Source: Candidatus Micrarchaeota archaeon (lineage in GTDB: Archaea > Micrarchaeota > Micrarchaeia > Anstonellales > Bilamarchaeaceae). From it: a DNA stretch of 24,585 bases. Shown in pieces: positions 4,903 to 9,302 of the stretch. The stretch lies in contig JBBITJ010000001.1 of NCBI GenBank assembly GCA_037440825.1, forward strand, positions 1 to 24,585, given 5' to 3'. The notes below the pieces were generated by a model, which was not told the origin of the DNA, ran no database searches, and saw only the letters and a list, made by a program, of their open reading frames with translations. Positions within the stretch are counted from its first letter, which is position 1, and every line of letters starts with the position of its first letter. The position numbers were made by a program, and so were the translations under genes.

Positions 4903-5770
4903 ATGAACGGGTGTTTTCTTCCGCGGTGCAGAAAACAGTAAGACAAGGGGAATAGTTGCGAAGTTCAGGCAGAAAGTCCAGGAGGAGGGGCTGCTGCTGG
5001 TTAAGTTCAGCGGGAAGACGCTGAACGACAAGATGATGAATGAGCTAGCGGAGCTCAAACGAAACCGGAAACACGGGGCTGGAAACATCGTCTTGGTGCA
5101 CGGTGGAGGTGTGCAGATAGACGAGCGCGTGCGCTCCGAATTGAAGCGCGAGCCGGAATTCGACGAAAAGACCGGGCTGCGCATAACGGACTGGGAAACC
5201 ATGCGCATAGTCGCGGACGTGATAAACGGCATAAACCGCGATTTGGTAGGGAAAATCTCCGCACTCGGAGTGGATGCTGAGGGCTTCGACCTGCGCAGCA
5301 ATGTGTTCCTGGGAAAGGCGGAAGGCGGAAAGATAGGAAGGTACGGCCGCATAACCATGACCTACGCTGCTGGAGTTATGGAGGCTGTGCTCGAAGGCAA
5401 GCTCGCAGTGGTTGCGCCAATAGGAAAGGACAACGAAGGCGCGCTCAACCTCAACGCAGATGATGCGGCTGTCGCGATGGCTGCCGCGCTGGGACTGAAG
5501 GAGATACTCCTCATAACCAACGTGGATGGCATATATGTGGAAGGGAAGCGGCTCACGAAGATATGCGGATTCTGCAGCCCGCACCTGGATGCGCTCATGG
5601 CCAACGGCTACGTGGGCAAGGGTATGAAGGAGAAGGTGTACGCGTGCTCGCTGGCAGTCGCGCAGGGCATCTCAGTGAAGATAGCCGACGGCAAGGTGGA
5701 AAACGCGATAGCGCATGCGCTGGACGGGAATGCGCACGGAACCACGGTCGTGGCAGGGGGAATTTTGTGA
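4903..5770 (+). CDS. argB: Acetylglutamate / LysW-aminoadipate kinase (ArgB/LysZ, amino acid kinase family); start region out of frame or non-canonical
   Basis: VKFSG (upstream of the track's ATG 5033), VHGGG, GLRITD, LNLNAD, TNVDG, GMKEK. The frame is open from 4907, but the SD-matched ATG 4903 is in a different frame. Confidence 0.8.
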
Positions 5771-5784: not shown

Positions 5785-5806
5785 TGATTGAAAACGCATG
5801 ATTGAT

Positions 5807-7321
5807 ATGGCACAATTCGCACCGCCCACTCACAGTTTTGCGCAGCGCATAAGGACGCTGGACACCACACTCAGGGACGGAGAACAAACTCCAGGAGTGA
5901 AATTCAACAAAGAGGCAAAGGTCATCATAGCCAGGGCTCTGAAGAAGCTCGGCGTTGACATAATAGAGGCCGGCAGCGCGATAAACGGCAAGGAGGAAAG
6001 GGCCGCGATACGCGCGGTATGCGAAGAGGTAGGAGACAACCTTATGATCAGCTCCTTCGCGCGGGCGCTTGAAAAGGACGTTGACATGGTTGTGGAATCC
6101 GGCGCCGGTCGCGTTTCGCTCGTATTCCCGGCATCAGACATGCACATAAGGAACAAGCTCAGGACGAATGACAGGGAAGAGGCAGCAGCAAAGATACTCA
6201 AGGTGGTGGAGCACGCGAAGAAGAGGGGGCTCGTGGTGGAGATGCTCGCAGAGGACGGCAGCAGGGCGGATTTCGATTTCCTCAAGAGCATGGCTGTGCG
6301 CGGAATGGACGCTGGCTCCGACGGGTTCTGCGTATGCGATACCGTCGGAGCGCTAACTCCTGAGATGACCAAGGCGCTTTTCGAGTTCCTCAGGGAAGGA
6401 TTCCCTGGATACCTGGCTTTCCATGGCCATAATGATATGGGGCTCGCAGTAGCGAATACCCTCGCAGCCTTGCGCGGCGGCGCAGATGGGTTCCACGGCA
6501 CGATAAACGGGCTGGGGGACAGAGCAGGAAACTGCGCGCTCGAGGAAGTCGCGTTCAACCTCAAATTCCATTACCAGAAGGACACCGTGGACCTGAAGCA
6601 GATTTATGAGATATCGAAACTGGTCGCAGGGCTCTCCAATTTCTATCCTGCGAGGAACAAGCCGCTCGTGGGAAGAGGAGTGTTCTCGCACGAGGCTGGC
6701 ATACACGTGGACGGGTTGATAAAGGACGTGCGCATGTACGAGCTCTTCGATCCGGAAATGGTGGGCAGAAAAAGGGAGGTCACGCTCGGCAAGCTTTCCG
6801 GGAAGGCCAGCGTCCAGTACAAGCTCAAAGAATTCGGCATGGAGCTGGGCGAGCAGGGGAAAGAGGAGCTGCTGGGGCTCGTGAAGCAGATGGGCGAGAT
6901 GGGGCTCGTGGTGAGCGACGCCGACTTCTTCATGCTCGTGGAGAAGGTGAAGGGCAACGGCGCGCACGAGAGGATAAAGATAGAGGAAATAACAGTCACC
7001 ACCGGAAATACGATTACGCCGCACGCGTACGTCAAGATAAGGCTTAACGGAGACGAGACTTTCCATTACGGAGCCTCGCTCGGGGACGGGCCTGTTGATG
7101 CGGCGTACAAGGCAGTCGAAAACGCGCTCAAGGAAGACGGCGCAGGCGTTGAGCTCACGGGATTCCACGTGGACGCGATAACGGGCGGAAGCGAGGCAGG
7201 AGTGCGGGTGAACTTGAGGGTGAAGAAGGGCGGGATCGAGCTCACCTCTACTTCTGTTGGGACGGACATAGTGCTCGTGAGCGTGGACGCGTACAGGAAG
7301 GCGCTCAACGTGCTGCTTTAG
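5807..7321 (+). CDS. cimA: (R)-citramalate synthase-like DRE-TIM enzyme with C-terminal regulatory domain
   Basis: DTTLRDGEQTPGV, HGHND, HEAGIHVDGLIK, GPVDA and the C-terminal ..NVLL resemble, from my recollection, archaeal CimA more than LeuA. Confidence 0.75.
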   Translation: MAQFAPPTHSFAQRIRTLDTTLRDGEQTPGVKFNKEAKVIIARALKKLGVDIIEAGSAINGKEERAAIRAVCEEVGDNLMISSFARALEKDVDMVVESGAGRVSLVFPASDMHIRNKLRTNDREEAAAKILKVVEHAKKRGLVVEMLAEDGSRADFDFLKSMAVRGMDAGSDGFCVCDTVGALTPEMTKALFEFLREGFPGYLAFHGHNDMGLAVANTLAALRGGADGFHGTINGLGDRAGNCALEEVAFNLKFHYQKDTVDLKQIYEISKLVAGLSNFYPARNKPLVGRGVFSHEAGIHVDGLIKDVRMYELFDPEMVGRKREVTLGKLSGKASVQYKLKEFGMELGEQGKEELLGLVKQMGEMGLVVSDADFFMLVEKVKGNGAHERIKIEEITVTTGNTITPHAYVKIRLNGDETFHYGASLGDGPVDAAYKAVENALKEDGAGVELTGFHVDAITGGSEAGVRVNLRVKKGGIELTSTSVGTDIVLVSVDAYRKALNVLL

Positions 7322-7352
7322 CCAAAGTGTGGTTTTGTGGGAAATCAAAACC

Positions 7353-7360
7353 TTTAAAAA
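7353..7360 (+). promoter_or_regulatory. TATA box with upstream A-rich BRE-like element
   Basis: CAAAACC-TTTAAAAA; begins 31 nt before ATG 7384. Confidence 0.7.
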
Positions 7361-7383
7361 CAGTTCAGGACAAAATGATGGAT

Positions 7384-7473
7384 ATGAACGCTTCAGTACG
7401 GAACTCTAGACAGGAGATCGGAAACCGCACTGTGAGCTCCGCACAGCTTCTTCTCAGCCTTCTTTTGGCCTAG
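7384..7473 (+). CDS. Leucine-rich leader peptide MNASVRNSRQEIGNRTVSSAQLLLSLLLA (leuL-like)
   Basis: Codons CTT CTT CTC AGC CTT CTT TTG GCC TAG at 7447-7473, no Leu elsewhere in the peptide, directly upstream of a LeuA-family gene. In-frame ATGs also at 7375 and 7378. Confidence 0.8.
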   Translation: MNASVRNSRQEIGNRTVSSAQLLLSLLLA

Positions 7474-7507
7474 CCGGCCGCACATCCACAACAATCCCTA
7501 CGATAGA

Positions 7508-7528
7508 TTTCTCCTCTCTTGCTTTTTT
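7508..7528 (+). terminator. Pyrimidine/U-rich tract, candidate attenuator termination site
   Basis: TTTCTCCTCTCTTGCTTTTTT between the leader stop and the SD of the leuA-like gene. Confidence 0.5.
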
Positions 7529-7577
7529 GCCGCGTTTTCGGCGTTTCAAAGGAATTCACGATTACATGGTGATATTG

Positions 7578-9302
7578 ATGAGGAATTACAGCAATCCGTA
7601 CGTGGCTGCCGCGATAAGGCAGGCGAACATAAGGAAAGTCGAGCAGCACATCCATGAACTGGGCGCCAGGATACTGGATGCAAGGCGCAATCCCGCGATT
7701 CTCGCAAATGTTGAGATCTTCGACACCACTGCGCGGGACGGCATGCAGATGCACAGGGCATTCGTGAATCCATACAGGACGAGGATGAAAAGCAAGATAG
7801 AGGTAGTACAGAGGATAATGGAGTGGGGCATACCCGCGATAGAAGTAGGTTATCCCGGTTCGAGCGCCGAGGAACTGGAAGCCGCGCAGAAGCTCGCGGC
7901 GTTCAAGCGGAAAAAAGGATTCCCTACGACGCTGGTCGGGCTTGCAGGCACCATAAAAGAGCACATCAAGGCGGTAAAGGACGCCGAGCTGGACGAGGTG
8001 CACATATTCTCCTCAGGCTCTATTGCGCACGCATACACGAAATTCGGGAAGATGCCCGAGGAGCTGGTGCCCGGCATAGTCGAAGCGGTGCAATACGCGG
8101 TGAAGCTGGGATTCGGGAAAATACTCGTTTCGCTGGAAGATGCGTTCAGCGCGGATCCTGACCACGTGGTCAATGTAGCTAACCGCGTATTTGATGCTGC
8201 AAAAGGCAGGGGCATACGGTACAACATCCCTGACACGATAGGTGTCGCTGATCCGGCGATCGCATTCGCATACATAAGATATGTCGCAGAACGCACGGGC
8301 GTGCCGATAGACGTGCACTTCCACAACGACGGCGACACTGCTGCGACTAATTCTATCTACGCTGTGCTGGGAGGCGCGAGCAGGATACAAGCGACGGTCG
8401 GCGGGCTTGGCGAACGCGCCGGAAACGCATCGATAAGCAAGATAATCGTGCAGATGAACCAGCACTACGGAGTAATCCCTAACGACGTCTATGGGAAGCA
8501 TCTCGACATTAGCCAGATGAAGGCGGTTGCAGAATTCGTGGAGGTCCGTTCGGGAATACGGATTCCGCAGCAGGAGCCAGGCATCGGGAAGTATGTATTC
8601 GCGCATGCGAGCGGAATACACGCCAACGGCTACCTCAAATCCGTCATAAGGGATGGCGTAGTGCACAGCATATACGTAGCCGTCAACCCCACAATTTACG
8701 GGAACGAGGAGAAAGTGGTGCGCGGCCCTCTCGCAGGGGAATCCAATCACAAGATCACCCTGATGGATTTCGGGATAAACATCGAGCACCCTGAAGTGGC
8801 GGCGAAAATAAAGGAGATAAGCGACTACGACAAGGCAGAGTCGGCGAAGAAGCACGTGAGCGATGCTGAATACCTGCTCAACGTATACAGGATAATCACA
8901 GGCAGGGAATGCAATGCCCTGAGCATACAGGACAAGGACATTTCGATCCACGTGAGCGGCACAGGCGCGAGCGCCGAGATAGTGGCGACAATAGAAGGCA
9001 AGACCGAGACTGGCATCGGTACCGGCAACGGTCCCGTTGATGCGGCAGTGTGCGCGATAAAGAGGGCAATCGAAGGCAAAGGCAGCCACCTGCCGATCAT
9101 AATCGACTACGACAACCACAGCATCGGAAGCGGCAGCGACGCGAGCGCGGAAGCCCAGCTCACGATAAAGAACGGCGGGAAGCCCATGGAGACATCTTCC
9201 ATAGGGCCCAACACCACCGTGATAGCGATAAAGGCATACGTGCAGGCGTACAACGCGCTCCATGCGCTCGCGGAACTGCAGCAGCGCTACGGAGGGAAGT
9301 GA
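7578..9302 (+). CDS. leuA: Divergent 2-isopropylmalate synthase-like enzyme with N-terminal extension and C-terminal regulatory domain
   Basis: IFDTTARDGMQ, HFHND, GLGERAGN, FAHASGIH, GNGPVDA; SD GGTGA before ATG 7578; Leu-rich leader upstream. Confidence 0.7.
   Translation: MRNYSNPYVAAAIRQANIRKVEQHIHELGARILDARRNPAILANVEIFDTTARDGMQMHRAFVNPYRTRMKSKIEVVQRIMEWGIPAIEVGYPGSSAEELEAAQKLAAFKRKKGFPTTLVGLAGTIKEHIKAVKDAELDEVHIFSSGSIAHAYTKFGKMPEELVPGIVEAVQYAVKLGFGKILVSLEDAFSADPDHVVNVANRVFDAAKGRGIRYNIPDTIGVADPAIAFAYIRYVAERTGVPIDVHFHNDGDTAATNSIYAVLGGASRIQATVGGLGERAGNASISKIIVQMNQHYGVIPNDVYGKHLDISQMKAVAEFVEVRSGIRIPQQEPGIGKYVFAHASGIHANGYLKSVIRDGVVHSIYVAVNPTIYGNEEKVVRGPLAGESNHKITLMDFGINIEHPEVAAKIKEISDYDKAESAKKHVSDAEYLLNVYRIITGRECNALSIQDKDISIHVSGTGASAEIVATIEGKTETGIGTGNGPVDAAVCAIKRAIEGKGSHLPIIIDYDNHSIGSGSDASAEAQLTIKNGGKPMETSSIGPNTTVIAIKAYVQAYNALHALAELQQRYGGK

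Follow-up and report, generated by a model that had tools for sequence, protein, structure and literature searches.

In bacteria, leader peptides of the leuL type sense charged tRNA-Leu through tandem Leu codons, and attenuation by leader peptides is the textbook proof that the coupling of transcription to translation can be regulatory; coupling itself is accepted for archaea. In Escherichia coli tnaC, free tryptophan is sensed at the stop codon by way of the nascent peptide, and the factor that acts there is Rho. The available part of PMC1262725 defines the actinobacterial LEU element by a pseudoknot and a base stem that pairs the Leu codons with the Shine-Dalgarno (SD) box, and in the mycobacterial poly-Cys system, as set out in the portion of the preprint at hand (10.1101/834739), ribosome stalling opens up a duplex masking the following ribosome-binding site (RBS). 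For archaea, a full-text search within one paper collection found no published report of an amino-acid leader peptide. The strings 'attenuat' and 'leader peptide' do not occur in the accessible text of a review of archaeal coupling (PMC8116511). Upstream open reading frames, or uORFs, within the 5' untranslated regions of M. jannaschii are no commoner than in random sequence, according to the available section of PMC2699501, and a general statement that uORFs regulate in archaea too stands in the accessible part of PMC10219788. Here we describe a short open reading frame (ORF) ending in a run of Leu codons, upstream of a LeuA-family gene that we call LeuA2, in a 24,585-nucleotide (nt) stretch of a Candidatus Micrarchaeota archaeon genome (contig JBBITJ010000001.1, positions 1 to 24,585). 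This whole stretch is referred to as the window.

The leader is real and conserved, and its occurrence is far beyond chance; it is also very probably translated, judged from its coding signature. Its parts, and the gene that follows, are arranged on the window as follows.

7353 to 7360, forward strand: TATA box TTTAAAAA of the leader transcript, kept in the leader alignment.
7384 to 7473, forward strand: leader ORF MNASVRNSRQEIGNRTVSSAQLLLSLLLA, 29 codons and a TAG stop; its message is probably leaderless and translated.
7447 to 7467, forward strand: Leu codon run CTT CTT CTC AGC CTT CTT TTG, compared codon by codon across 14 sequences.
7466 to 7480, forward strand: hairpin UGGCC-UAGCC-GGCCG, whose loop opens with the three bases of the stop codon.
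7474 to 7506, forward strand: C-rich, G-poor spacer with no significant predicted folding, from composition and shuffles.
7507 to 7528, forward strand: pyrimidine block ending in T6 (7523-7528), a candidate archaeal termination or pause signal.
7568 to 7571, forward strand: SD core GGTG, 10 nt before the ATG, invariant in the leader alignment and within the SD peak of the genome.
7578 to 9302, forward strand: LeuA2, a LeuA-family gene of 574 amino acids (aa) with a LeuA_dimer regulatory domain.

A preliminary description of this DNA had proposed leucine-responsive attenuation here, and the features on which it was built can all be read directly from the sequence: the TATA box, the ATG 31 nt on, the 29-codon ORF with Leu at six of the last eight codons, the hairpin with the stop codon in its loop, the pyrimidine/T6 tract, the SD and the LeuA2 ATG (7578) 104 nt after the leader stop. 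The only Leu codons of the leader are CTT CTT CTC (7447-7455) and CTT CTT TTG (7459-7467), which make up those six of the last eight sense codons. The hairpin arms are (T)GGCC at 7466-7470 and GGCC(G) at 7476-7480, enclosing the loop TAGCC (7471-7475) and thus the TAG stop (7471-7473). Tandem Leu codons, by which attenuators of this type are recognized, are therefore present in the leader, whose translation we infer.

The window belongs to a genome (G000) of 875,410 bases that is 95.6% complete and has 54% G+C. The host is a genome-reduced DPANN archaeon; among its genes are those for a class I lysyl-tRNA synthetase and an archaeal PINA-type ATPase. When the 574-aa protein was used to search 176 genomes of the order with an orthologue threshold of E<=1e-70, LeuA2 orthologues were found in 11 (G000, G002, G004, G021, G026, G087, G250, G313, G414, G416 and G419) at 40-57% identity, and a scan of genome contigs with this single protein returned one locus. 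All 11 orthologues are preceded by a short ORF that has a terminal Leu run and a stop codon in the loop of a GC hairpin. G002 is represented by two contigs, one cut inside the leader ORF and the other carrying the whole leader. A metagenome scan with an alignment as query kept 80 loci, comprising 77 generic LeuA proteins of ~30% identity and three that are LeuA2-like; the leader stands before both of the LeuA2-like loci with enough upstream DNA, the third having just 138 nt upstream. As a control, 70 generic metagenome LeuA loci with at least 300 nt upstream yielded two Leu-rich short ORFs, neither of them similar. The conservation on which the preliminary description had staked its proposal is thus seen at 11 of 11 orthologues and two metagenome contigs, in the short ORF, its frame and its synonymous Leu run, and the stop-in-loop hairpin and T-rich tract are kept alongside. 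The full comparison set holds 14 sequences, from 12 genomes and two metagenome contigs, and several of the RNA-folding and promoter tests below used 12 leader sequences rather than all 14.

The pattern of change within this set is that of codons. At codon positions -5 to -2, counted from the stop, 54 of the 56 cells of the 14-sequence alignment hold Leu, and each Leu column is written with two to four synonymous codons (CTT, CTC, CTG, TTG). Exactly one codon is missing, as a clean 3-nt deletion, in G250, G414 and the metagenome contig L054. The stop codon is TAG in 10 sequences, TGA in three and TAA in one, always at the same place in the loop. The window leader uses CTT four times, CTC once and TTG once and so favours the less used Leu codons of the genome (CTC 0.41, CTG 0.29, CTT 0.17, TTG 0.08). 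Homologous leader ORFs in the 13 further sequences bring the range of peptide lengths to 20-33 residues overall. The N-terminal part is free in both length and sequence and only the last six to nine residues are conserved, a variability that argues against the peptide having a protein function of its own.

The position of the start codon points to how the leader would be translated. From the first T of the TATA box to the ATG at 7384 the distance is 31 nt, and the ORF is therefore probably leaderless. Further in-frame ATGs occur at 7375 and 7378; the usual archaeal promoter spacing would leave them too near the box for transcription. An in-frame ATG 31-32 nt past a TATA-like motif is found in 11 of the 12 sequences, and the twelfth, from the AT-rich genome G026, has TATATAAA at about -35, seen by eye. 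Across G000, the peak of TATA-like motifs relative to start codons falls at -31 to -27 and that of SD motifs at -12 to -9, and the two classes are almost exclusive, with both signals present in 2 of 424 genes. By these position classes the leader fits the leaderless genes and LeuA2 fits the internal, SD-led cistrons; LeuA2 accordingly appears to have no promoter of its own. How often such an arrangement arises in the same genome can be gauged from the 41 short ORFs that start 27-33 nt after a TATA-like motif: only the leader ORF combines a C-terminal Leu run with a following SD-led gene, and no other amino-acid leader was found among them. One TATA-linked short ORF, MRRLLLLLLLASVSCLHVAHASYQDVVINTP on the forward strand of G000:C20 near 14103, has an N-terminal Leu run and looks more like the signal peptide of a truncated or mis-framed gene than like a leader.

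Downstream of the Leu run, conservation extends to the RNA. The stop hairpin is a GC stem of 5-9 bp in all 14 sequences, longest in the AT-rich genome, and is the sole structure retained by RNAalifold on the 12 leaders. One compensatory change, from C-G to G-C in G002, also turns an Ala codon into Gly. The first 30 nt past the stop hold 7-14 C and 3-6 G in every sequence. Next, all 14 sequences have a 14-base window in which 12 or more bases are pyrimidines, and 11 of them have a T run of at least five. In G000, runs of at least five T cluster 0-20 nt past stop codons (48 and 36 per 10-nt bin, as against 5-17 beyond), so the leader tract is a plausible archaeal terminator. G000 also has an aCPSF1/FttA orthologue, scoring 831.7 bits against a cut-off of 580.2.

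Searches beyond the orthologue carriers returned few further copies. A strict DNA pattern run against 401 genomes of the phylum matched in eight genomes, with three false positives inside long ORFs, and its reversed control gave four matches. With a covariance model trained on 12 leaders, the known copies reached 46-77 bits; after a clear gap came a single site in G005 at 27.6 bits. This site (MMSMRKAKGINAKYSGLLTALFLLLAWPAAPLIII; locus L141, G005:C12:41749-41801) lies ~120 nt before a third LeuA paralogue and is decayed: the former hairpin loop has TGG where the stop would be, and a T6 run comes after it. A decayed copy at such a place ties the element to LeuA-family genes. The lower covariance-model matches that were inspected (seven loci and G000:C18) either lie in a longer open frame or have no Leu-run ORF whose stop falls in a hairpin loop. 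In G001, G003 and G006, which belong to the same genus and have no LeuA2, no leader was found before the other LeuA paralogues.

Some carriers differ in what surrounds the leader. In G133 (locus L031, G133:C5, 96-836, minus strand) an intact leader, MDIRSDIRGSHSAMLSLLLLLA, precedes an unrelated 247-aa protein; this protein matched no Pfam family, and LeuA2 was not found in that genome. In G004 (locus L003, G004:C21, 1926-2390, minus strand) a 155-aa ORF with no Pfam family lies between the leader and LeuA2 and takes the place that the SD and ATG of LeuA2 have in other genomes. In G416 the leader is preceded, at a distance of ~74 nt, by the end of a tRNA-Phe(GAA) gene (L040, 615-686). In G087 and G313, the same 5' and 3' tRNA halves split by an insert can be seen by eye upstream of the leader where ARAGORN calls none; these may be intron-bearing or split tRNA genes.

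In our reading the element is a leader ORF that is translated, acts in cis and measures charged tRNA-Leu, with ribosome occupancy gating termination at the U-rich tract, and on comparative sequence evidence we put the probability of this reading at roughly 0.6. That the leader would serve as a leucine gauge in some form, whether it is read out through termination or through translation or mRNA stability, is a somewhat safer claim, and we consider it likely. In the termination reading, transcription would start ~31 nt past the TATA box, on the 7384 ATG or beside it, as the promoter spacing suggests, and a ribosome would load on the 5' end of the leaderless RNA while it is still being transcribed. 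With leucine plentiful, the conservation pattern suggests that the ribosome would read through the Leu codons, reach the stop codon in the loop and leave, and its departure would expose unstructured C-rich and then U-rich RNA behind the polymerase. With leucine scarce, it would be parked on the Leu run, where it would melt the hairpin and occupy the 3' end of the leader. The difference in occupancy would set the share of polymerases that terminate at the U-rich tract, either intrinsically or via aCPSF1/FttA, and this share would in turn set the amount of message that reaches the SD-led LeuA2. The Discussion of a paper on the FttA structure, in the part accessible to us (PMC11616081), advances the hypothesis that the ribosome and FttA are mutually exclusive on the elongation complex.

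Several observations weigh against the termination reading. No structural link between ribosome position and the U tract was found by RNAalifold, shuffling or pairing analysis. A terminator/antiterminator switch was rejected because RNAalifold keeps the stop hairpin alone. A spacer hairpin between the U run and an A run appears in some minimum free energy folds, but spacer folding does not surpass that of mononucleotide shuffles (z -1.3 to +1.9), and the purine-rich 5' part of the ORF, considered as an anti-terminator, matches the T block better than shuffles do in just 2 of 12 sequences. (The preliminary description had noted the lack of a classical terminator/antiterminator pair, and on this all three analyses concur with it.) The pyrimidine tract lies 34-55 nt past the stop codon in the window, 34-59 nt past it in 13 of 14 sequences and 68 nt past it in G002, so that a polymerase on the tract would be out of reach of a ribosome halted at the stop codon or on the Leu codons. 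The sequencing runs found to contain this stretch of DNA are DNA runs, and none of RNA was listed. The T run is shorter than five in 3 of 14 sequences. The GCTCAGC motif before the Leu run is conserved and in G002 stands in a different reading frame; part of the conservation must therefore be at the level of RNA. Finally, in the Streptomyces leuA leader, mutations of the Leu codons did not behave as attenuation predicts, according to the available text of PMC1262725.

Genome content adds to these difficulties. In G000 a Pfam search, whose controls were positive in 13-14 of the 14 genomes used as reference, detected none of Iso_dh, Aconitase, Aconitase_C, ILVD_EDD_N, KARI_C and Aminotran_4; LeuB, LeuC, LeuD, IlvC, IlvD and IlvE were thus not found in this genome at its 95.6% completeness. 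LeuB, LeuC and LeuD are also missing from the other leader-bearing genomes searched, except for G021, which alone has one Iso_dh and one aconitase. Aminotran_4 genes occur in G250, G021 and G026, and KARI_C in G026. LeuA2 is therefore an orphan enzyme, to which the biosynthetic logic of classical attenuation does not directly apply, and pathway logic consequently gives neither its substrate nor the sign of its regulation. The preliminary description had called the gene an archaeal leuA. Its LeuA-family membership stands, with HMGL-like, HCS_D2 and LeuA_dimer domains; a biosynthetic role is less certain, as the protein falls below every NCBIfam equivalog cut-off (best 263.8 bits against 517) and the rest of the pathway was not found. 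Taken as a whole, that earlier interpretation is partly supported.

A more specific form of the termination reading is that archaeal ribosome-mediated attenuation would operate here with no RNA switch at all, the leaderless Leu ORF acting as a one-ribosome timer for termination at the U tract. We offer it tentatively and regard it as rather doubtful. If true, the timer would operate in a DPANN symbiont unable to make leucine, and an orphan LeuA-type enzyme would be tuned to the leucine supply for some other purpose, e.g. exchange with the host.

The alternative that survives best keeps the same Leu-sensing ORF and changes its read-out: a ribosome stalled on the Leu run would alter RNA folding or the protection of the 5' end, and hence LeuA2 initiation or mRNA decay, with no regulated termination. 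The nearest bacterial analogues without terminators are read out in this way, as the available portions of 10.1101/834739 and PMC1262725 describe, and the LeuA2 RBS is moderately closed in 12 of 12 sequences, with opening energies of 5-13 kcal/mol. For the window, however, this energy is unexceptional, ranking at the 80th percentile of 204 SD-led genes, so that an unusually closed RBS was rejected. Masking by a ribosome placed at the first or last Leu codon or at the stop cuts the opening energy by 1 kcal/mol or more in just 5 of 12 sequences and increases it in one, an effect too inconsistent for RBS unmasking by a stalled ribosome to be retained. Nor does the RBS have an evident pairing partner, as the complementarity of the Leu run, the post-hairpin segment (CACACC) and the mid-spacer to the SD region does not exceed that of shuffles (z -1.9 to +1.6); by eye, CACACC-SD pairing is good in G021 and G250 and absent in G000, G004, G002, G026 and G087. 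Protection of the 5' end would have a candidate in a helix between the first ~20 nt of the transcript and the segment before the Leu run (GCTCAGC), which can form in 11 of 12 sequences (mean z -1.47; p<0.05 in 5 of 12) and would hide the 5' AUG after the first ribosome has passed. This modelled helix is a possibility; against it, cognate pairs are not separated from non-cognate ones, and the window leader itself shows no folding advantage over shuffles (z +0.23). On balance we consider a purely translational or stability read-out unlikely.

We give still less weight to a reading in which the element serves above all as a site, in RNA or DNA, that a protein or other factor recognizes, made up for instance of the GC hairpin (which is also a DNA palindrome) and GCUCAGC. 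The Leu codons would then be no sensor, and the ORF would be incidental or would just keep the RNA translated. The stop hairpin is indeed the only statistically clean structure of the leader, the conservation of GCTCAGC at the nucleotide level persists out of frame in G002, and in the part of PMC1262725 available to us the authors reached a protein-binding reading for the actinobacterial LEU element. A binding site alone, however, does not explain a periodic YTN over four to six codons with free third positions; three different stop codons at one place, a 3-nt indel and an in-frame ATG fixed after the TATA box also count against this reading, and we hold it to be improbable. That the short ORF, conserved and probably translated as it is, encodes a small trans-acting protein merely linked to LeuA2 in an operon is very improbable indeed, given conservation limited to the last six to nine residues in peptides of 20-33, a stretch of five leucines too short for a membrane span, stop and spacer RNA features that would have no role, and an element that always accompanies a LeuA-family gene, one genome excepted. 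A box C/D small RNA, a bulge-helix-bulge (BHB) splice motif and an antisense promoter were also considered by eye and set aside, as their defining motifs are missing.

LeuA2 itself has isopropylmalate, homocitrate and citramalate synthases as its best solved relatives. The motif TT[AG]RDGMQ is common to the LeuA2 group where the G005 LeuA paralogue has TTLRDGEQ; the changed residue adjoins what we take to be the catalytic Arg-Asp and may reflect a changed substrate. No conserved operon partner was found after LeuA2, the downstream genes differing between genomes. Upstream, LeuA2 stands in tandem with a second LeuA-family gene (507 aa, 5798-7321) that is 27% identical to it. This paralogue adjoins an ArgB/LysZ-like amino-acid kinase (5033-5770) and has homocitrate synthase as its best solved relative; by the same pathway search, both tandem genes of G000 are orphan enzymes. 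Several LeuA-family matches in G001, G003, G005 and G006 contain one or two in-frame stops each, which may reflect decay of the family within the genus.

A conserved example of this kind offers a handle on how archaeal ribosomes communicate with RNA polymerase and aCPSF1/FttA, and its start codon, Leu run, stop hairpin and T tract are clean targets for mutation. It draws attention as well to an orphan enzyme of LeuA type, so far unexplained, that would be under leucine-linked control in genome-reduced symbionts.

How does the leader compare with the described systems? With enterobacterial leuL it shares a short Leu-run ORF directly before a LeuA-family gene, a U-rich tract between the two, and the ribosome as presumed sensor of charged tRNA-Leu. 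In contrast to leuL, it has no terminator/antiterminator hairpin pair, its promoter is an archaeal TATA box with a probably leaderless start, its Leu run lies at the very C-terminus with the stop codon in a hairpin loop, and its host has no rest of the leucine pathway. Rfam gave no match in the window at gathering score and none at E<=10 for 7300-7620, Leu_leader included. The actinobacterial LEU element, as far as the accessible text of PMC1262725 describes it, is likewise a leuA-linked upstream Leu-run ORF with no obvious terminator, but no pseudoknot was seen here, and RNAduplex pairing between the Leu run and the RBS gave z values of -1.6 to +1.4 over 12 sequences. The mycobacterial poly-Cys short ORFs, the 'ribulon' of the available preprint text (bioRxiv 10.1101/834739), resemble the leader, which is probably leaderless as they are, in being first cistrons ahead of the regulated gene and carrying a run of codons for one amino acid; they differ in domain of life and promoter type, and ribosome masking in silico has no consistent effect here. 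In the tnaC/Rho system, as in this locus, a leader ORF is followed by an unstructured C-rich spacer, and the action of a termination factor could hinge on whether a ribosome occupies the region near the stop codon. Here the sensor would be a codon run, unlike in tnaC, and by analogy the candidate factor would be aCPSF1/FttA; the prerequisites for such factor-dependent attenuation, an aCPSF1/FttA orthologue and an unstructured spacer that is C-rich and then U-rich, are both present.

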